The notes under the pieces were generated by a model that was not told the origin of the DNA, did no database searches, and saw only the letters and a list, made by a program, of their open reading frames with translations. Position numbers and translations under genes: made by a program. A stretch of DNA of 32,000 bases from an uncultured Opitutales bacterium (GTDB taxonomy: Bacteria > Verrucomicrobiota > Verrucomicrobiia > Opitutales > Intestinicryptomonadaceae). Positions 4,375 to 31,964 of the stretch are shown one piece after another (position 1 is the first letter of the stretch; the number at the start of each line of letters is the position of its first letter). The DNA lies in the NCBI GenBank assembly GCA_934613415.1, contig CAKTSY010000005.1:180001-212000 (forward strand), in the 5' to 3' direction.

Positions 4375-5298
4375 CTATTTTTTTACCTGAACTTTTATTA
4401 CGGTTCTGCCCCCTTGCATTTCTTCGGGCACGCCAAGGCTGTTAAATTTAAAGTCGGTTTCCATTTCCTTCGACTGCCCTTTGCGCAATGTAATGGAAGC
4501 GTCGCTACCGTATACATTTCCGCCGCCCGTGTTGCTTTGTTGAACGGGTAACTTTTCCAGCTTGGGCAAGTCGGTTACCTTTGGGCGCACGGGCGTTTTT
4601 GGCACTTCAACAAAATTGCCGTCTTCGTCTATCGGCTTCGACGACATTGCCTTTGGTAGCGCAATCTTTAGCCTGTCGCGCTTTATCTGCGTATTCGAAA
4701 TATCGAACAAATCCAAAATGCTTTCGTCTTTTTGGTTTAGGTCTGCCCCCGCCTTTTTTATGGCTATGCCCGACTCGCCGTCGGTTGGCTTGCGCGAGTA
4801 ATATTTGTTTATGTCCGACATAGACCTTTCTATGTGGTCGTTATAGTCGGCGCGTATTTTGTTGTGAAAGCGACTGCGTTTTTCGGTGTCGAATCCGCCT
4901 TCGTATTTTTTCGACATATTGCGGTCGGCGTTGTCCAGAATAAAATCTTCGGGCACGCCGTTGTAGCGCGAAGTTTGCGAATATTGCGAAAATTCGGGGA
5001 CTGAATATTTTTTGTCGGAACCCGAAAAATTTTCGTCTGAAAACGCCGATTTTTGCCCGTTAATAGAGGCCATTTGGGAAGCCCCGCCCCAAGCTTTGTC
5101 GGCATTTTCGTTTTTAAAGCTTTTGTAGCGCATATCCGAGCCTTGAAAGCTTTTTTTAAAGGCGTCGCTTTCCTTGCCGTCGTAGCGTTTGTTAAGTGTG
5201 GCGTTTGCGCGCGTAAAGTCGGTGGCTTTTACCTGAGCAAAAAGCCCGTTTGCCGCCAACACGGCAAATAGCACAAAAACTGACGCCCTAAAAAACAT
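4375..5298 (-). CDS. Secreted hypothetical protein (~307 aa), no recognisable domain
   Basis: Listed ORF is 4375..5316. I prefer the ATG at 5298 (MFFRASVFVLFAVLAANGLFAQ looks like a signal peptide), which lies 1 nt after the parB stop (TAG-A-ATG). Lys/Asp/Ser/Asn-rich with no motif I recognise. Confidence 0.6.
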   Translation of the reverse strand: MFFRASVFVLFAVLAANGLFAQVKATDFTRANATLNKRYDGKESDAFKKSFQGSDMRYKSFKNENADKAWGGASQMASINGQKSAFSDENFSGSDKKYSVPEFSQYSQTSRYNGVPEDFILDNADRNMSKKYEGGFDTEKRSRFHNKIRADYNDHIERSMSDINKYYSRKPTDGESGIAIKKAGADLNQKDESILDLFDISNTQIKRDRLKIALPKAMSSKPIDEDGNFVEVPKTPVRPKVTDLPKLEKLPVQQSNTGGGNVYGSDASITLRKGQSKEMETDFKFNSLGVPEEMQGGRTVIKVQVKK

Positions 5299-6975: not shown

Positions 6976-8122
6976 ATGATTATAGATTCGCAAATACGCG
7001 CCGACATAGACGACATAAAAAAACGAGCCTCGCACCTGTGGAGGTTTCTTTGACGTAGAAGGAAAGCAAAAACTTATTACCGAAAAGGAAGCCGTTATGG
7101 CTTCGGACACCTTTTGGAACGACCAAAGCGCGGCGCAAAAAACCATAAACGAACTAAATTCGCTAAAGGCTGCAGTTGGCCCGCAGCTTGAACTAAAAAC
7201 CAAGCTAGACGACCTTCTTGTTTTGGAAGAGCTTGTAAAAGAATCGGAAAACGACCCCGATTTGGCGCAGGAACTGGCAAACGAATGCCAAGCTTTATAC
7301 AAGTTTTTGGACGAGGCGGAAATAAAGTCGTTTTTGTCGGGCCCTTTGGACGCAAACAACGCCATTATTACCATACACGCGGGAGCTGGCGGCACCGAAA
7401 GCTGCGACTGGTGCGAAATGCTCTTTAGAATGTACACGCGCTGGGTTGAAAAACGCGGCTGGAAGATGGAAATAGACGACCTGCAAGCCGGAGAAGAAGC
7501 GGGATTTTCGAAAATTACCGCAAGGATTATAGGCGACCATGCCTACGGCTACTGCAAATCGGAACGCGGAGTGCACAGGCTTGTAAGGATAAGCCCTTTC
7601 GACTCGAACAAGCGCAGGCACACCTCGTTTTGCTCGGTAGACGTTATCGCCGAAATTCAGGACGACCTTTTGGATTTCCAAATTCCCGACGAGGATTTGA
7701 GGATAGACACCTACCGCTCGAGCGGCAAGGGCGGCCAGCATGTAAATAAAACCGAAAGCGCGGTAAGGATAACGCACATACCTACGGGCATTGTGGTTTC
7801 CTGCCAAAACGAGCGCAGCCAAATAAAGAACAAAGCCACCGCAATGAAGGAGCTTAAAAGCCGCCTTTACGAGCGTATGCAAGACGAAAAGCGCGCCGAA
7901 ATGGACAAATTTTACGGCGAAAAGGGAGAGATTTCGTGGGGCAACCAAATACGAAGCTATGTATTTCAGCCCTACCAAATGGTAAAAGACCTGCGTACGG
8001 GAGCGCAAACGGGCAATATGACGGCCGTTATGGACGGCGACATAGACCTTTTTGTAAACGCCTTTTTAAGGGCGGGCTGCCCTACTTGCCGCAACAAAAA
8101 CATACAGATAGACGACGAATAG
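6976..8122 (+). CDS. prfB: Peptide chain release factor 2 (join 6976..7050, 7052..8122; programmed +1 frameshift)
   Basis: The listed ORF 7097..8122 has [13 protein letters not shown] and the GGQ motif ([20 protein letters not shown]). Its frame is open back to 7052. An upstream ORF in the -1-offset frame starts at ATG 6976 ([25 protein letters not shown]) and ends at in-frame TGA 7051..7053 within CTT TGA C. Shifting +1 gives ...[28 protein letters not shown], a normal RF2 N-terminus. Confidence 0.92.
7040..7054 (+). promoter_or_regulatory. RF2 autoregulatory +1 frameshift site: GGAGG-TTT-CTT-TGA-C
   Basis: An internal Shine-Dalgarno-like GGAGG (7040..7044) lies 3 nt upstream of CTT TGA C (7048..7054). 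This is the same architecture as the classical E. coli prfB site (AGGGGG-TAT-CTT-TGA-C). Confidence 0.9.
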
Positions 8123-8160
8123 GATTTACAAAATCAGGCAAATTAAAAATAATTGGCACC

Positions 8161-8826
8161 ATGAATAACCTGCAAAAGAATTTTATCATAGCAATGTGTC
8201 TTATAGCGTTTGTCTGCTGCATATTTGCGGTAAAATATGCACGGCAAAAGACCGAAACAATTTCGCTTGCAGAACGCGTAGAAAGTCAGGAAAGCCTGGC
8301 AAAAAGGCAGCAAAAAGAGGCTCAACAAATTAAGGACATTGCAGAACGCGCCCGAATTAAGGCATTAAGCGACCTTAAAAAAGCCGAGCAAGCCCGCAAA
8401 ATGCTTGAAAAAACAAAAGCCCAAAGCGAAAAGAACCAGCAAAAACTTTTGGCAGATTTAAACGCCCAGCTAGAAAGGGAGGCCAACGCCCGAAGCTCGG
8501 CCGAAAGCGCGTCTATTGAGCTTGCTCGCCAAAAAGAGGCTTTGCAAAAGGCGGTAAGCGATGCCCGACAAACCATTGCAAAGCTCCAGCAAACTACTAT
8601 GGGCAAAAACGACACCGACAAATTGCTGGATTTCTATAAAAACCTGATAAGGGAAAAAGACGCCGAAATTGCCGACCTAAAGCAAAAGCAGCAGGAGCTA
8701 GACCAGCTAAAGAAAAACGCCGAAGCCGCCCAAATTGCAACCGAAAAGGAAATTTTAAATAAGGGCGGCACAATTACACTGCCCAAAAGCCGCAGGCTGC
8801 TTTCGCCCAATTTTAGGGGAATGTAA
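8161..8826 (+). CDS. Membrane-anchored coiled-coil protein, function unknown
   Basis: Listed ORF 7936..8826 overlaps the prfB 3' end. I start at ATG 8161 (MNNLQKNFIIAMCLIAFVCCIFAV = N-terminal TM helix). The remainder is Q/K/E/A-rich coiled coil. Confidence 0.6.
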   Translation: MNNLQKNFIIAMCLIAFVCCIFAVKYARQKTETISLAERVESQESLAKRQQKEAQQIKDIAERARIKALSDLKKAEQARKMLEKTKAQSEKNQQKLLADLNAQLEREANARSSAESASIELARQKEALQKAVSDARQTIAKLQQTTMGKNDTDKLLDFYKNLIREKDAEIADLKQKQQELDQLKKNAEAAQIATEKEILNKGGTITLPKSRRLLSPNFRGM

Positions 8827-23388: not shown

Positions 23389-24114
23389 TTATTTATTCTC
23401 CGCCTTTTTGCATACTACAACCGACGCGGGCCTTATAAGCCTGTCGTCTAGTCTGTAGCCCAAACGCACAACGTTTACAATTTTGTTGGCTTCGTGCTTT
23501 TCGCTTTCTATGCAAGAAACCGCCTCCTCGAATTTGGGGTCGAACTCGTCGCCCTCGTTCGGGTTAATTTCAACAACGCCGTGCTTTTCGAAAATCTGCT
23601 TAATTTGTTTTGCAAGCATTTCAAAACCCTGCGCCCAAGTGGGCGATTCCAAATGCTTGTGTATGTTGTCCATAGCCAATGCCAAGTTGTCTAAAACGGG
23701 AATCATATCTTCTACAAAGGGTATTACCGCCGTTTTTACCTGCATTGCCATATCTCTTTGCATTCTGCGCCTGTAGGTGTCGAAAGATGCAACTTCGCGT
23801 ATGTATAAATCCTTATTTTTTGCGGCTTGAGCCATCGCAAGCTCTAAATGGGCAAGCAATTCGCTTTCGCGTTGTTTGCATTTACATTCGTCGCCTTCGT
23901 TTTTTTGCTCTTGCCCGTTGTGGCAGCATTCGTGCCCGTCGTGATGGTGGTGACTGTGGCAACATTCGCCGCCATCTTCGTGGTGGTGATGGTTGCAGCA
24001 GCAATGCTCATCTTGCCCGTGCTGGGCGTTTTCGGCGCCGTTTTGCGCCGCGTTTTTGTTGTTTGTGTCGGAGGCATTTTCAGCCCCGTTTTTATTGTTA
24101 AATTCTTCCGTCAT
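23389..24114 (-). CDS. grpE: Nucleotide exchange factor GrpE with Cys/His-rich N-terminal extension
   Basis: C-terminal GrpE core (FDTYRRRMQRD ... EGDEFDPKFEEAVSCIE ... VVRLGYRLDDRLIRPASVVV). N-terminus contains HGQDEHCCCNHHHHEDGGECCHSHHHHDGHECCHNGQEQKNEGDECKCK. Confidence 0.9.
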   Translation of the reverse strand: MTEEFNNKNGAENASDTNNKNAAQNGAENAQHGQDEHCCCNHHHHEDGGECCHSHHHHDGHECCHNGQEQKNEGDECKCKQRESELLAHLELAMAQAAKNKDLYIREVASFDTYRRRMQRDMAMQVKTAVIPFVEDMIPVLDNLALAMDNIHKHLESPTWAQGFEMLAKQIKQIFEKHGVVEINPNEGDEFDPKFEEAVSCIESEKHEANKIVNVVRLGYRLDDRLIRPASVVVCKKAENK

Positions 24115-26638: not shown

Positions 26639-26726
<88 letters not shown>

Positions 26727-26912: not shown

Positions 26913-27167
26913 TTAATAGAGCTCAACATTTTTTTTGATGTGATTGTTATTTTCCAAATCGTCATCGAAAAATATATCTACTACACCATTACGCTTGGAA
27001 GATAGATAAATTATGTACATGAAAGAAATTTCCTCGTTTGGAGATATTGTATATGAATCCGAGATTTCTTCTATTTGCTCTATGTTATACATTTTTATTC
27101 GAACATTTCTTGCGGAAGATTGCCCGACGTTCTTTATAGCGATGTAGCCTGGTTTATTTGATGCCAA
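26913..27167 (-). CDS. Beta-rich small ORF (84 codons from TTG); probably the C-terminal part of a frameshift-split gene
   Basis: Its frame is open upstream to just past the A9 tract (…KKKANFEINVRRPLASNKPGYIAIKNVGQSSARNVRIKMY…). There is no ATG start or SD of its own. The NxGxxxAxNV pattern resembles Ig-like/CARDB-type beta-sandwich strands. Confidence 0.5.
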   Translation of the reverse strand: MASNKPGYIAIKNVGQSSARNVRIKMYNIEQIEEISDSYTISPNEEISFMYIIYLSSKRNGVVDIFFDDDLENNNHIKKNVELY

Positions 27168-27181
27168 TGGACGACGAACAT

Positions 27182-27385
27182 TTATTTCAAAATTAGCTTT
27201 TTTTTTAAAAGTAGTTCTTCTTTAAACTTAGAAAGCTTTAAATCATTAAGTTCAATCTCTTGTTTTTTAATTCGTTTATCATATATAAAAAATCCAATGG
27301 TGCAAAAAAGGAAACTGGATATAGAGATGATAAGAGAAATATCACTCTTCCCCAAAGAAGAAAAGATTTCGTATATTACTTGCAC
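27182..27385 (-). CDS. Small membrane-anchor/coiled-coil ORF (67 aa), translationally coupled to res
   Basis: GTG start at 27385, preceded by GAGGA with a 7-nt spacer (agcGAGGAtaatatcGTG). It overlaps the last 10 nt of res. TM helix ISLIISISSFLFCTIGFFIY, then a charged helix KKQEIELNDLKLSKFKEELLLKKK. Confidence 0.55.
   Translation of the reverse strand: MQVIYEIFSSLGKSDISLIISISSFLFCTIGFFIYDKRIKKQEIELNDLKLSKFKEELLLKKKLILK
27197..27206 (-). other. A9 homopolymer containing an in-frame A-AAA-AAG -1 slippery heptamer at the junction of the two small ORFs
   Basis: Minus strand: cta ctt tta aaa aaa aag cta att ttg aaa taa. Either a -1 slip on a-aaa-aag or one extra A reads ...KKK-ANFEINVRRPLASNKPGY..., fusing 27385..27198 to 27196..26913 (~157 aa). 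Confidence 0.6.
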
Positions 27386-30021
27386 GATATTATCCTCGCT
27401 ATTTCCGCCTTATATGAATCTTTGCGAGCCATAAGGAATAAGCATTTACCATTAGAACGTTCAGCCCATAATTCTCCTATTATTCTCTTCGCTTTTGAGT
27501 CATCATTTGAATAAAGATGTTCCCCCTTATATTCTATTGCAAAAATGCGTCCATCATTAAGAAGACAGATAAAATCAGGATAAAAACGTGTTTTCGCAGT
27601 AGGAAGCCAGAAAGAAGTATCTTCCTTTTTCTCTATATTCCTAATCCAATATTTCACTTCTGGTAAATTATCTATGAAGTGGGCACACTCTATTTCATCG
27701 GAATTCATAGATGCGACCTGCGGGAAATAATGCTTTTTAAAATTATTTTCGATTGGATCGCTTACTGGATACTTATCAGGGTTAAATACGAAAGCATAAT
27801 CATGTTCAGTTCCAGACAATTTTATTGGAGTGTCTTTTGAGTCTAACAAAAATTCAAGTTGTTTGTCGAAATATGCCGCTTCAGCCGTCTGTTTATGAAT
27901 TCTAAAAAGTTCACGAATATGGCGAATAAACCCCCACCTTTCCCTTACAAAGTCAGATAACGATGCTTCATACCTAATCATAGATTGTTGTAAAACATAG
28001 GTAATGAAAGCAACAGCGTTTTGTCTGTCTGTATCTGGGTGGATTATATTTCTATCAATCCATGATACTAACTGCGTTTCTGTCCAACTTTCAGGCGGAG
28101 TAATAATTCGCAAATCTTGCTGAATATCGCTTGTAAAATCGAGCTTGATTTTCCCGTCTTCGCCGATCGTTCCAAGAACGATATTGTTGTCTTTTGCATT
28201 TGGATTAAAAATGAAGTTTGTTGAATCGTCCTTATAATCAAGGATATTCCAGTCGCCGTCTATGATTCGCGTATCAGTATCAAGAAGTTCAAATTCACCT
28301 TGTACAAGGATTCCAAGTGTCGGTACTTTAAATGGCTCATTTCTTTCCGATGGTGATGAAAATATTTTTTCAGTAATTTCACGTTGTTGCTTTATTGTTT
28401 GTTTAACGATTTCCTTGTCAGTTTCATCTGAAACTAGATCCAAGATTTCTTTTTCTTGTTCTTCAGACAATACATTTTTTACCGAAAGTTCTTTTGTTTG
28501 AGGATTAAATTCTATTTTCTCTTTTAGTTCCATTGAAAACTTTTCAGTATTTAGTGGAACACTCAACGTACAAATCTTTTTAGGTATTCTACGTGTTTCT
28601 AAGGGTAAAGTTGTTTGTTGTCCTTCCCGAATAAAATCTGAAGCTTCCATTTTCTCAAAACCGCTTTCGATTAACGAATCACGCAACGAGCTAGCTGCTA
28701 ATTGGAAATTTTCAGATACCGCAAAAGCGTATGCACAATTTAATGCCAACGTTTCCTTTTTTGTAACACGTGGAAGACGTAAAATACGTCCTAAAATCTG
28801 TTCTACGGCTGTCTGTGAACGTTGCTCGGCAAGAGAACACAGGACATAAGCAAATGGACAATCCCACCCCTCTTTTAAGGAATCAACCGTAATTATATAA
28901 CGAATTTTGCATTCATCGGACAGCAAATCTTTACCTTTTGCTTCGCTTCTCTCGTATGCTTCCATTGCGATTTCGGCTTTAGGGATTTGACATTCTCCGA
29001 GCAGATAATCTTCTATTTTGTCCGTAGTGATATTTTCGGGGTGTGCTTGCTCCTTATTTTGCGCCTTTATTAGCATTATAGGACGTATATACTCTCCAGT
29101 CTTAATCTTTTCTATTTTAGCTAATTCATTCAGCACGTTAAGTTCCGCGATCGCGTGATTTAAAATGTCTTTCCAATTACGCTTTACTTCAAGGCGTACT
29201 GGAAGTTTTATCATATCTTCGGTAAATAATTCATGAGCGGAAACGTGATGTAATACATTGCTTGGCGTGTTATTACCTTCACCTTTTGAAGGCGTCGCTG
29301 TAAACTCTATAATTGCTGACGGACTAAAAGCCCTAAGCATATCAAACGAAAGCGGACTTCTAGCATTGTGCGCTTCATCAACTATTACAATCGGGTGGCG
29401 CATACGCAGGACATTTGCCAAAGAATATTCAATTAGTCCATTTTCATCTTTTAAAAGTTTTTCTGAAACTTTTGGATCAAGCCCAGAAAAATGCGACATC
29501 AAACTTCCGTTTTCGTCATAGGCTTTTCGGGATTCTTTGTTTCTTACTCGAAATGCTTGCATTGTGGAAACAATTATGGTTGTTGCGCCATCTAATATGG
29601 CTTTAGTCAGCCCATAGCATTCTTGAATTTCGCGGATTTCAATTTCGCCGAGAGTTGCGGTTAACGCTTGTCGATATGGGTGTTCTCGGTCTTTTAATGC
29701 GGTAAGTGTTTGAACTCTGATCGGATCACTTGGAACAAGCCATAACACACAAGCGTGTTCTTGCTTTAACAAATTGTCTTTTGCAATACGTATGGAATGA
29801 CATGCCAAAAGCGTTTTTCCACCGCCAGTAGGAAGCCTGAGGCAAACATATGGCATATTGGCGTCGAATCCGCTTATAGATTTGTAATCTCTATTTTCGC
29901 CAAACTTTTCATATATCGTATCGATAAAGGCTTTTCTGGCGTCGTGTATTTGGGAAACCTTATCGAAATATAAAGATAATGTATCAAGAGTCTCTTGTTG
30001 ATAATTCTTTAGCAATACCAT
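27376..30021 (-). CDS. res: Type III restriction enzyme Res subunit (SF2 helicase + C-terminal PD-(D/E)xK nuclease)
   Basis: Motif I LPTGGGKTLL, motif II VIVDEAHNA, motif III EFTATP, motif VI QILGRILRLP. C-terminal nuclease YPDF...IFAIEYKG. Starts 9 nt after mod. Confidence 0.88.
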   Translation of the reverse strand: MVLLKNYQQETLDTLSLYFDKVSQIHDARKAFIDTIYEKFGENRDYKSISGFDANMPYVCLRLPTGGGKTLLACHSIRIAKDNLLKQEHACVLWLVPSDPIRVQTLTALKDREHPYRQALTATLGEIEIREIQECYGLTKAILDGATTIIVSTMQAFRVRNKESRKAYDENGSLMSHFSGLDPKVSEKLLKDENGLIEYSLANVLRMRHPIVIVDEAHNARSPLSFDMLRAFSPSAIIEFTATPSKGEGNNTPSNVLHHVSAHELFTEDMIKLPVRLEVKRNWKDILNHAIAELNVLNELAKIEKIKTGEYIRPIMLIKAQNKEQAHPENITTDKIEDYLLGECQIPKAEIAMEAYERSEAKGKDLLSDECKIRYIITVDSLKEGWDCPFAYVLCSLAEQRSQTAVEQILGRILRLPRVTKKETLALNCAYAFAVSENFQLAASSLRDSLIESGFEKMEASDFIREGQQTTLPLETRRIPKKICTLSVPLNTEKFSMELKEKIEFNPQTKELSVKNVLSEEQEKEILDLVSDETDKEIVKQTIKQQREITEKIFSSPSERNEPFKVPTLGILVQGEFELLDTDTRIIDGDWNILDYKDDSTNFIFNPNAKDNNIVLGTIGEDGKIKLDFTSDIQQDLRIITPPESWTETQLVSWIDRNIIHPDTDRQNAVAFITYVLQQSMIRYEASLSDFVRERWGFIRHIRELFRIHKQTAEAAYFDKQLEFLLDSKDTPIKLSGTEHDYAFVFNPDKYPVSDPIENNFKKHYFPQVASMNSDEIECAHFIDNLPEVKYWIRNIEKKEDTSFWLPTAKTRFYPDFICLLNDGRIFAIEYKGEHLYSNDDSKAKRIIGELWAERSNGKCLFLMARKDSYKAEIARIISCK

Positions 30022-30030
30022 TTTGAAGCC

Positions 30031-31722
30031 TTATTTATCAAATATTGAATAGGGTATCTGACGAAACACTATATTGTTTTTGCGCAACATCATTTCGCTT
30101 AACCCGCAAGCCGTTCCGTATATAATTTTTACACCGTCGTGTTTTGGTAAATTTTTTAGGACTTTTTGAGTAAGACGATTTCCACCGTTTACGGAATTAT
30201 CGCCGAGAATACCGTTGTAAAGCAGGTATATAGCAACTCCGTTAGAAACTCCGATAAGAGGAGTTTTAAATTCCGTATTGTTATAAGCAAGCGGAGTTCC
30301 AGTGGCCATAAAGAAAACGTGTCTGGCTAAGTCGGCATATTTGATGTTCGGATTTATATCGCCGTCAGCCGTGTACATCGGCTCACCGAGTTTTGCGAAT
30401 TTAAATCCCGTTTGTTCCTGCAACCCATCGCGTTCTATTACACGTTTTGCGCGCTCCCGAGTAATTGATTCGGCGACTTGCGGCAACATTTCGCAAAGAA
30501 TGAATTTGCGGTTTCCTTTGTCTTCTTTATTAAGTTCCAATACCGCTTGCGCCGTTGTTCCGCTACCAGCAAAAGAATCAAGGACAAGGGAGTCTTTAAA
30601 ACTTGCTATTGACAATAAGTGAGCTATCAATGCTGATGGTTTTGCATAATTAAATTCCAATCCTAAATCTTCCAATTCTTGAGTTCCAATACTATTGGGA
30701 AACTCTTCTATAAAATCTTGCAATATTTCTTTTTTTTGAATTGAACCATTTTTATCTACAACTTCATCTTTAAAAATTTTTTTCCTGATTGTCCATTTTG
30801 ATTTGTTGCCATTTTCATCAATAAACGGTGATTTTTTTGATATGGAAAAATAAAAACGTCCAATCGCCTTTTCTTTCTTATATCGTTCTATACCCCAAGT
30901 CCAACATTTATCCTGCTGTGATTCTGGAAATACTTGGGCTCCATCAATTTTTTCTTTTGGCATAACATTCCCAGGAGGTATTATTAAAGAACCATCTGGA
31001 CATTCTATAAAATAACGTTGATTCTTTCTTACATCGAGTTTTGCCCTAAAAGGGATTTCTCCTTTTAGAAAATAACGAGTTTTGCTATTAAAGATTTCTG
31101 TTTCCCATTTATAGACTGATTCATTTATAATTTTACCAAAAGTATGTTTTTTAACAGAAGATATTTCTCTTGCGTAACATAATACATAATCTTTTTTAGG
31201 CTTTAAAAAGTCTCCTTTGTTCCCACCTTTTTTTGTTATTCGAGCAATGTTGCCAACAAAATTCTGGGAATCAAAAATTTCATCAGAAATCAACTTCAAA
31301 TTTGCATATTCTATATCGCCAATGCTTATAAAAATAAATCCATCTACAGTAAGAAACTCTTTCAATAATGAAAGCCTTGGGTACATCATACAAAGCCATT
31401 TGTCGTGGCGTGATAAGTCTTCCATTTCTTTACCTACAACTTGTCCGAGCCATTTTTTTATTTCCGGCGAATTTACATTGTCATTATAAACCCATCCTTC
31501 ATTGCCGGTATTATACGGCGGATCTATGTATATACACTTGACTTTCCCTTTGTAGTAGGGGAGCAAGGCTTTTAGCGTAACGAGATTGTCGCCCTCCACT
31601 ATAAGATTTCCGCTGTCTTTTTTACCAAAGCTTAAAGACTCATCCTCTTTCAAAATATGAAATGGAATCTCTCTATGGTGATTAACAACGGCTTTTTTTC
31701 CTATCCAGTCTAACGTTGGCAT
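30031..31722 (-). CDS. mod: Type III restriction-modification Mod subunit (beta-class N6-adenine/N4-cytosine DNA methyltransferase)
   Basis: N-terminal LDWIGK box. Catalytic motif IV IYIDPPYNTG precedes AdoMet motif I VLDSFAGSGTTAQA (beta permutation). A variable middle region is consistent with a target-recognition domain. Confidence 0.88.
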   Translation of the reverse strand: MPTLDWIGKKAVVNHHREIPFHILKEDESLSFGKKDSGNLIVEGDNLVTLKALLPYYKGKVKCIYIDPPYNTGNEGWVYNDNVNSPEIKKWLGQVVGKEMEDLSRHDKWLCMMYPRLSLLKEFLTVDGFIFISIGDIEYANLKLISDEIFDSQNFVGNIARITKKGGNKGDFLKPKKDYVLCYAREISSVKKHTFGKIINESVYKWETEIFNSKTRYFLKGEIPFRAKLDVRKNQRYFIECPDGSLIIPPGNVMPKEKIDGAQVFPESQQDKCWTWGIERYKKEKAIGRFYFSISKKSPFIDENGNKSKWTIRKKIFKDEVVDKNGSIQKKEILQDFIEEFPNSIGTQELEDLGLEFNYAKPSALIAHLLSIASFKDSLVLDSFAGSGTTAQAVLELNKEDKGNRKFILCEMLPQVAESITRERAKRVIERDGLQEQTGFKFAKLGEPMYTADGDINPNIKYADLARHVFFMATGTPLAYNNTEFKTPLIGVSNGVAIYLLYNGILGDNSVNGGNRLTQKVLKNLPKHDGVKIIYGTACGLSEMMLRKNNIVFRQIPYSIFDK

Positions 31723-31939: not shown

Positions 31940-31964
31940 TTCGACCTATTCCCTCTCTCTCCGC
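31940..31964 (+). repeat. Distal att-like direct repeat (displaced tRNA-Ser 3' fragment)
   Basis: ttcga-cctat-tccctctctctccgc. There is a perfect 15-nt match to the tRNA 3' end, plus the ttcga of the T loop with a 4-nt indel. Confidence 0.85.

Follow-up and report, generated by a model that had tools for sequence, protein, structure and literature searches.

Gene content and boundaries of the type III R-M islet

The 32-kb stretch of DNA that was analysed as a whole (hereafter the window) carries a small islet of restriction-modification (R-M) genes on its minus strand. The source names recorded for the DnaJ and RibF clusters point to a human-gut Opitutales lineage (Verrucomicrobiota). The mod gene (30031-31722, minus strand) is intact and encodes 563 aa, which matched Pfam N6_N4_Mtase and PADLOC MTase_III (E = 2e-154). 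The res gene (27376-30021, minus strand) is also intact; its 881-aa product matched Pfam ResIII and PADLOC REase_III (E = 6e-136). By their sequences, the two genes are assigned to a type III R-M pair. A third gene, which is split and is the main subject of this study, follows res.

The integration target is a tRNA-Ser(UGA) gene at 26639-26726 on the plus strand, identified by ARAGORN and scored at 52 bits by the Rfam tRNA model. We found an att-like 15-bp direct repeat, GCGGAGAGAGAGGGA, with one copy in the 3′ end of this tRNA gene (26710-26724, minus strand) and a second, perfect copy at the far boundary of the islet (31950-31964, minus strand); the number of such repeats expected by chance was 0. 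Judged from the sequence, the islet is thus a 5.24-kb att-flanked insertion in the 3′ end of tRNA-Ser(UGA). The GC content falls to 0.30-0.41 over most of it. The two copies of GCGGAGAGAGAGGGA enclose three genes only (mod, res and the split gene), and an integrase gene was not found among them. The islands of the relatives that we call type 1 below contain four further genes and a tyrosine integrase, with a Phage_integrase gene in L064 and L067. The distal repeat of the window is followed by a hairpin and a T run, which looks like the original, displaced terminator of the tRNA gene.

Three other features of the region were observed. The centre of mod (approximately 30598-31320) is not homologous at the DNA level to its counterparts in L001, L066, L068 and L069, and its flanks are 90-96% identical to theirs. 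The window's version of this centre is common to L064, L067 and L070. The pattern looks like target-recognition-domain swapping among alleles. Another contig with the same islet, L015 (from position 5216), is 100% identical to it over 5.2 kb, but has other DNA beyond the att core. As its junction DNA differs, the islet or its tRNA-side flank must exist in more than one arrangement. Outside the islet, the window encodes a GrpE homologue (23389-24114, minus strand) with a His/Cys-rich N-terminal extension, which contains HCCCNHHHHEDGGECCHSHHHHDGHECCH and is suggestive of metal binding.

A gene split at an A9 tract

The 5′ part of the split gene, ORF-A (27182-27385, minus strand), has 67 codons and overlaps res by 10 nt. 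It starts with a GTG at 27385-27383, encodes a transmembrane (TM) helix and a stalk helix, and ends at a premature stop. A Shine-Dalgarno (SD)-like GAGGA (27393-27397, minus strand) lies 7 nt upstream of the GTG, within the last codons of res, and is the same in L001. The frameshift site is an A9 homopolymer at 27206-27198 on the minus strand, seen as T9 on the plus strand; it is the sole homopolymer of at least nine nucleotides in the 32-kb window. Across this tract the zero frame of ORF-A reads TTA AAA AAA AAG CTA ATT TTG AAA TAA, so that an A_AAA_AAG heptamer (27197-27203, minus strand; register checked) is in register with it. The stop is the fifth codon past AAG, after four sense codons.

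The −1 frame stays open across A9 and ends with the stop codon 26915-26913. One and the same product of 157 aa, with the junction KKKANFEINVR, would result from a −1 slip or from an A10 tract. The 3′ half of the gene, which we call ORF-B (26913-27197, minus strand, −1 frame), encodes the beta-sandwich domain, and its 285 nt are all identical to a 145-aa gene that we call type 2 below. As start codons, ORF-B offers a TTG (27167) or an internal ATG. No SD-like sequence was found upstream of either, and separate translation of ORF-B from them was rejected for this reason. ORF-A, its overlap with res, the A9 tract, the heptamer and the open −1 frame had all been described in the first-pass annotation; these sequence-level statements hold, and the locus is on the minus strand.

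ORF-A and ORF-B belong to one conserved gene

ORF-A and ORF-B together make up a single conserved gene for a membrane protein of 157 aa. When the fused protein was used as a query, two kinds of relatives were retrieved. One was a cluster of 157-aa single ORFs, 76% identical overall and nearly identical over the first ~70 residues. The other was a 145-aa cluster, of which the last 94 residues are the same as those of the window. The 157-aa gene (type 1) lies directly after an 881-aa res in eight contigs, with the same 10-nt overlap and without interruption. At the site equivalent to the A9 tract, all eight of these loci read AAAAAAGAAA in frame, and therefore the window lacks one base: either the G has been lost or, which amounts to the same, it has become an A and there is one A fewer.

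The fused relatives are thus single ORFs, the outcome that the first-pass annotation had named as a check on its proposal of one gene. Its proposed coupling to a type III res also stands: in addition to the eight relatives with the 10-nt overlap, a 39%-identical family member follows a type III res whose product is 74% identical to that of the window.

More distant relatives gave the same picture. Among 1.84 billion representative proteins, 183 clusters matched the family profile at E ≤ 1e-3. Among the new profile matches listed, 140 of 148 were single ORFs of 130-175 aa, and most were matched over nearly their full length. The phage protein family phrog_6723 matched the fused protein of the window in one stretch over the break (residues 29-151 against 26-154 of 159, E = 4.6e-4); with the separate halves it gave nothing or an E-value of 0.09. 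The same family was matched by 31 of 33 family members (best E = 3e-20). The eight type-1 loci with a 157-aa single ORF, the profile matches, the phrog_6723 match across the break and a confident AF2 model (see below) together indicate one gene. The family can be described as widespread ~150-aa single-pass membrane proteins (phrog_6723, function unannotated). Nearly all of its members are uninterrupted ORFs of ~140-160 aa, and the window allele, which is split by a shortfall of 1 nt, is an exception among them.

Several searches were negative. The type-2 protein had no tblastn match in 50,697 phage records. Pfam, NCBIfam and PADLOC v2.0.0 contained no family for the protein, and PADLOC gave no meaningful match for P0001 or P0002. 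The DNA pattern of the type-1 junction was not found in the genome and metagenome contig collections that were scanned, and the lineage is absent from both. A related-locus search with a narrow family alignment found one Prevotella locus.

Two side observations concern the sequences retrieved. In P0042 (1480 aa), the beta domain of the family profile was matched in seven stretches, and hence the sandwich also occurs as a tandem repeat module. At the start of L016 (positions 1-60), a Nextera adapter, AGATGTGTATAAGAGACAG, has become joined to the type-2 gene during assembly, an artefact that makes an intact type-2 gene resemble a separate 84-aa ORF.

Predicted structure and topology

An AF2 model of the fused protein, built from a 33-sequence alignment, had a pLDDT of 90.3. 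In the model, one helix (residues 13-62) forms the TM segment and the stalk, and residues 66-155 form a seven-strand beta sandwich. The first-pass annotation had predicted a TM anchor, a coiled coil and a small beta domain for the joined ORFs, with structure prediction suggested as a check. The model supports a TM helix that continues into a long helix, followed by a beta domain of small size.

The TM segment of 140 relatives begins near residue 3; the Lys+Arg count is 0.2 ahead of this segment, compared with 4.2 in the 15 residues that follow. According to the positive-inside rule, these counts predict an N-out/C-in topology and a cytoplasmic sandwich. In the intact protein, a helical stalk would thus probably hold an Ig-like beta sandwich on the cytoplasmic side of the membrane. 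Conservation is seen in the motifs HDRKLKKQE, which follows the TM segment, KKA, where the stalk meets the sandwich, N-x-G-K-S-x-A-R-N, and WDDDF. The lysines of the KKA motif are encoded by the A tract.

Foldseek searches of PDB and BFVD returned nothing informative about function. The matches were generic Ig-like sandwiches (adaptin ear, MSP and a Bacteroides conjugative-transposon protein) as well as phage membrane proteins that lack annotation, and no TM-score exceeded 0.57. Matches to archaeal pilins and flagellins were rejected, because they shared the helix-plus-sandwich shape only, with an rmsd of about 13 Å.

The window allele as a recombinant of two paralogues

Comparison with the two types of relatives shows that the window allele arose by recombination between two paralogues, with the joint precisely at the A tract. 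From mod through res to the A tract, BLAST and alignment place the DNA with type 1, closest to L067 and L070. The res gene is ~99% identical to theirs (14 mismatches in the 2,600 nt compared), and ORF-A is ~99% identical to the type-1 res-coupled genes. From exactly 27206 onwards the DNA is homologous to type 2, which is represented by ten loci, and it remains so across ORF-B and the spacer as far as tRNA-Ser. ORF-B differs from the type-2 genes at none of its 285 nt and thus has no decay; in the adjacent spacer, 7-13 of 186 positions differ. The crossover zone is the segment AAAGCTAATTTTGAAATAAATGT (27178-27200, minus strand), which is identical in both parental gene types. Just upstream of this segment, the tract is A6-G-A3 in type 1 and T-A6 in type 2.

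The type-2 gene is usually part of a prophage-like integrative element, which also carries AAA_24, helicase and exonuclease-like genes, and occupies the end of this element that is nearest to the tRNA. In L004 and L007 it directly abuts tRNA-Ser. Tandem arrays of elements bearing the type-2 gene also exist, for example in L003.

We propose that two paralogues in the same orientation, probably within a tandem array at the tRNA-Ser hotspot, recombined with each other, and that the intervening DNA was deleted together with the integrases. The remnant would be the present 5.24-kb att-flanked islet, containing mod, res and the hybrid gene only. If the crossover was in register and fell between the T and G positions of the parental tracts, it would have removed both interrupters and created A10, and one replication slip could then have shortened A10 to A9. 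Direct loss of the G might be an alternative route to A9. The outcome would be a non-programmed frameshift, the main product of which would be a 67-aa stub of TM segment and stalk. A small fraction of full-length protein may persist, made when RNA polymerase slips on A9 or when the ribosome shifts by −1 on A_AAA_AAG.

From these sequence comparisons, we consider that the split is probably a recent, ordinary and lineage-specific frameshift, not a programmed one, at the recombination joint, caused by a one-base loss in a lysine-coding A tract and possibly leaky. Appreciable synthesis of the full-length protein might occur, as an A9 tract with an in-register A_AAA_AAG is about the most slippage-prone arrangement known. 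Nothing seems to point to selection for any such leaky product. The lack of decay in ORF-B fits a very recent event, and it fits equally well with selection on a product made by slippage.

The DNA of the type-2 gene itself (8001-8438) was 100% identical in ten contigs (L002-L011) with differing downstream contexts. The ~190-nt spacer between this gene and tRNA-Ser/att in the same contigs differs by ~4% on average. A recent sweep or gene conversion is a possible cause of the identity.

If the proposed history is right, the locus illustrates clearly how paralogous cargo genes that recombine at a tRNA hotspot can rid tandem islands of their integrases and fix an R-M cassette in place. The same recombination would merge two interrupted lysine tracts into a hypermutable homopolymer. 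By itself the frameshift is of small importance, and the gene family is the more useful result.

Sequencing error, phase variation and recoding

The first-pass annotation had offered three explanations for the split: a homopolymer sequencing error, slipped-strand phase variation and programmed −1 frameshifting. None of them fared well. Homopolymers are error-prone on some platforms, and an error of sequencing or assembly would mean that the true sequence is in frame. However, among the 18 contigs on record for the window allele, six were inspected for tract length (L012-L015, L017 and L018), and all six have A9. They come from different human-gut studies and assemblers, the same A9 being obtained in SPAdes-style, MEGAHIT-style and Logan assemblies of separate samples. 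Besides, the in-frame relatives differ from the window by a G inside the tract, not in the length of the run. An error is effectively refuted by these contigs, and we give it hardly any credence. The A9 contigs share nearly 100% identity over as much as 12 kb and thus belong to a single clone lineage, so that the fixation of A9 counts as one evolutionary event. Phase variation would make the tract a contingency tract created by recombination, with the full-length protein ON at A10 and OFF at A9. A homopolymer of nine within an ORF is mutable, and an in-register crossover of the parental tracts would be expected to give A10. Phase-variable genes are also common in type III R-M loci. The observations on tract length speak against such a switch: all six inspected human-gut contigs have A9 (as consensus assemblies, which would hide any minor A10 subpopulations within samples), no in-frame A7, A10 or A13 product was present among ~15 billion proteins, and the relatives show no tract-length polymorphism, their tract being interrupted by a G (A6-G-A3). 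Compared with what characterizes contingency loci, a simple tract in the ORF is present and length variation between samples is absent in the six contigs. Phase variation is, in our view, quite unlikely.

Programmed recoding, by a ribosomal −1 shift or by transcriptional slippage, would produce the short and the full-length form in a fixed ratio, as in dnaX or Citrobacter tssM. The heptamer lies in register within A9, and ORF-B is undecayed. A9 tracts are slippage-prone in many bacteria, in which slippage during transcription typically becomes significant from a run of nine (PMC1088944); with this threshold (~9 or more), the tract of the window is long enough for a transcriptional slippage site. 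In Citrobacter tssM, an A11 run rescues a split gene, and the poly-A tract gives two functional isoforms (PMC4256274). Moreover, the intact type-1 genes also contain an in-frame A_AAA_AAG, and a short isoform could be ancestral. Apart from the heptamer, the expected elements were not found. There was no GGAGG- or AGGA-like stimulator in the 25 nt 5′ of the heptamer, and the 126 nt downstream of it had a folding energy of −15.1 kcal/mol compared with a shuffle mean of −16.3 (z = +0.41; 128 of 200 shuffles folded as well). In the Rfam search only the tRNA exceeded the curated threshold, and a frameshift element was not found. The lack of an obvious stimulatory hairpin or SD had already been pointed out from the sequence, correctly. 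The split is not conserved either: it was seen in one clone lineage, and neither an A run longer than seven nor a split frame was present in 40 other family genes, the eight type-1 loci or the ten type-2 loci. Finally, the slippery site coincides with the recombination joint. Programmed recoding therefore seems improbable to us, and a non-programmed frameshift at that joint is still the reading that we prefer. For an unstimulated A_AAA_AAG, the available part of Sharma et al. 2014 (PMC4066793) gives no numerical efficiency.

The heptamer of the intact type-1 genes lies within 8173-8192 of L001 and at the equivalent positions of L064-L070, where the sequence reads TTA AAA AAG AAA GCT with A_AAA_AAG in frame. 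A −1 slip there is predicted to reach a stop three codons on and to give a product of TM segment plus stalk of ~65 aa.

Genomic context of the family

We surveyed the neighbours of family members in 36 loci, obtained from one viral and one metagenome motif scan, and in the other family loci of this analysis, which together gave 40 family ORFs; this census is biased by the motif and includes redundant elements, and it is not an enrichment statistic. In eight loci, one of them from Prevotella sp. CAG:1185, the family member belongs to a type I operon and is placed between hsdM and hsdS or next to them. Three loci have it after an ISP/IIG-like enzyme of 948-1316 aa and before a HEPN protein. The enzyme is an Eco57I-type methylase, and its 1316-aa form has an additional ResIII helicase domain. 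At the end of a methylase / ResIII-helicase / AAA_23 / HerA-like cluster, which resembles Hma systems, it was found in three further loci. One locus each has it adjoining a Dam-like methylase, a TIR protein, or DUF6361 with a PLD nuclease. Many other members have neighbours that are unrelated, non-defence or unannotated, and some stand alone. The family is thus linked to R-M and is not specific to type III, since operons of the type I, ISP-like and Hma-like kinds contain it as well.

In L028 (275-5496), L029 (1595-5712) and L036, the order of ISP/IIG-like helicase-methyltransferase, family member and 250-aa HEPN-domain protein is conserved. It is possible that these three genes constitute a composite defence module.

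Nesting within multi-gene defence systems has predicted new defences in other cases (10.1101/2024.01.29.577857; PMC11411939). The repeated embedding of the family in defence operons raises the possibility that the intact protein has an independent anti-phage or exclusion function, a tentative suggestion, worth following up, to which we give slightly less than even odds. A much broader proposal is that the family is a new class of defence accessory, namely a membrane-tethered, cytoplasm-facing Ig-like module of type I, ISP-like, type III and Hma-like operons. Such a module might be either an independent exclusion or abortive-infection factor acting at phage DNA entry, or a membrane anchor or modulator of restriction complexes, and in the present lineage it would have acquired a new A9/A10 slippage switch. 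Taken as a whole, this proposal is unlikely. An unannotated, confidently modelled membrane beta sandwich in R-M operons of at least four architectures is nevertheless an anti-phage candidate that is cheap to test, and the family is missing from the version of the defence-finder database that was searched (PADLOC v2.0.0, 2023).

Comparison with known systems

The gene of the window has the same A_AAA_AAG as E. coli dnaX, in the same zero-frame register. Unlike dnaX, it has neither an upstream SD-like stimulator nor a 3′ hairpin, and the arrangement is not conserved in its homologues. The consequence of a shift is also reversed, as the shift yields the short form in dnaX, whereas it would be needed for the long form here. 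The A9 of Thermus dnaX (PMC1088944) and the A11 of Citrobacter tssM (PMC4256274) share with the window a run of at least nine A just before a premature stop, with the remainder of the gene in another frame. In contrast to both, the tract of the window is lineage-specific and lies at a recombination joint.

For the intact protein, the lactococcal Sie2009-type proteins may be compared, which are small, membrane-anchored superinfection-exclusion proteins of prophages. As a lead only, the family resembles them in its size of ~150 aa and its one N-terminal TM helix, and the type-2 gene resembles them in its place at the att-proximal end of a prophage-like element. However, there was no sequence or fold match between them, and the charge distribution of the family predicts a cytoplasmic globular domain rather than an external one.

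The genes predicted from their embedding in other systems (Payne et al. 2024, 10.1101/2024.01.29.577857; TgvAB of Vibrio type I R-M, PMC11411939) are likewise small, nested accessory genes. The present family differs from them in that it is absent from PADLOC v2.0.0, lacks an enzymatic domain and can also have unrelated genes as neighbours. The closest named relative is phrog_6723 (PHROGs v4), whose full-length profile match is shared by the window fusion across the frameshift. This PHROG carries no functional annotation, and most of the family members analysed here reside in chromosomal R-M or defence operons and in integrative islands, not in phage genomes.
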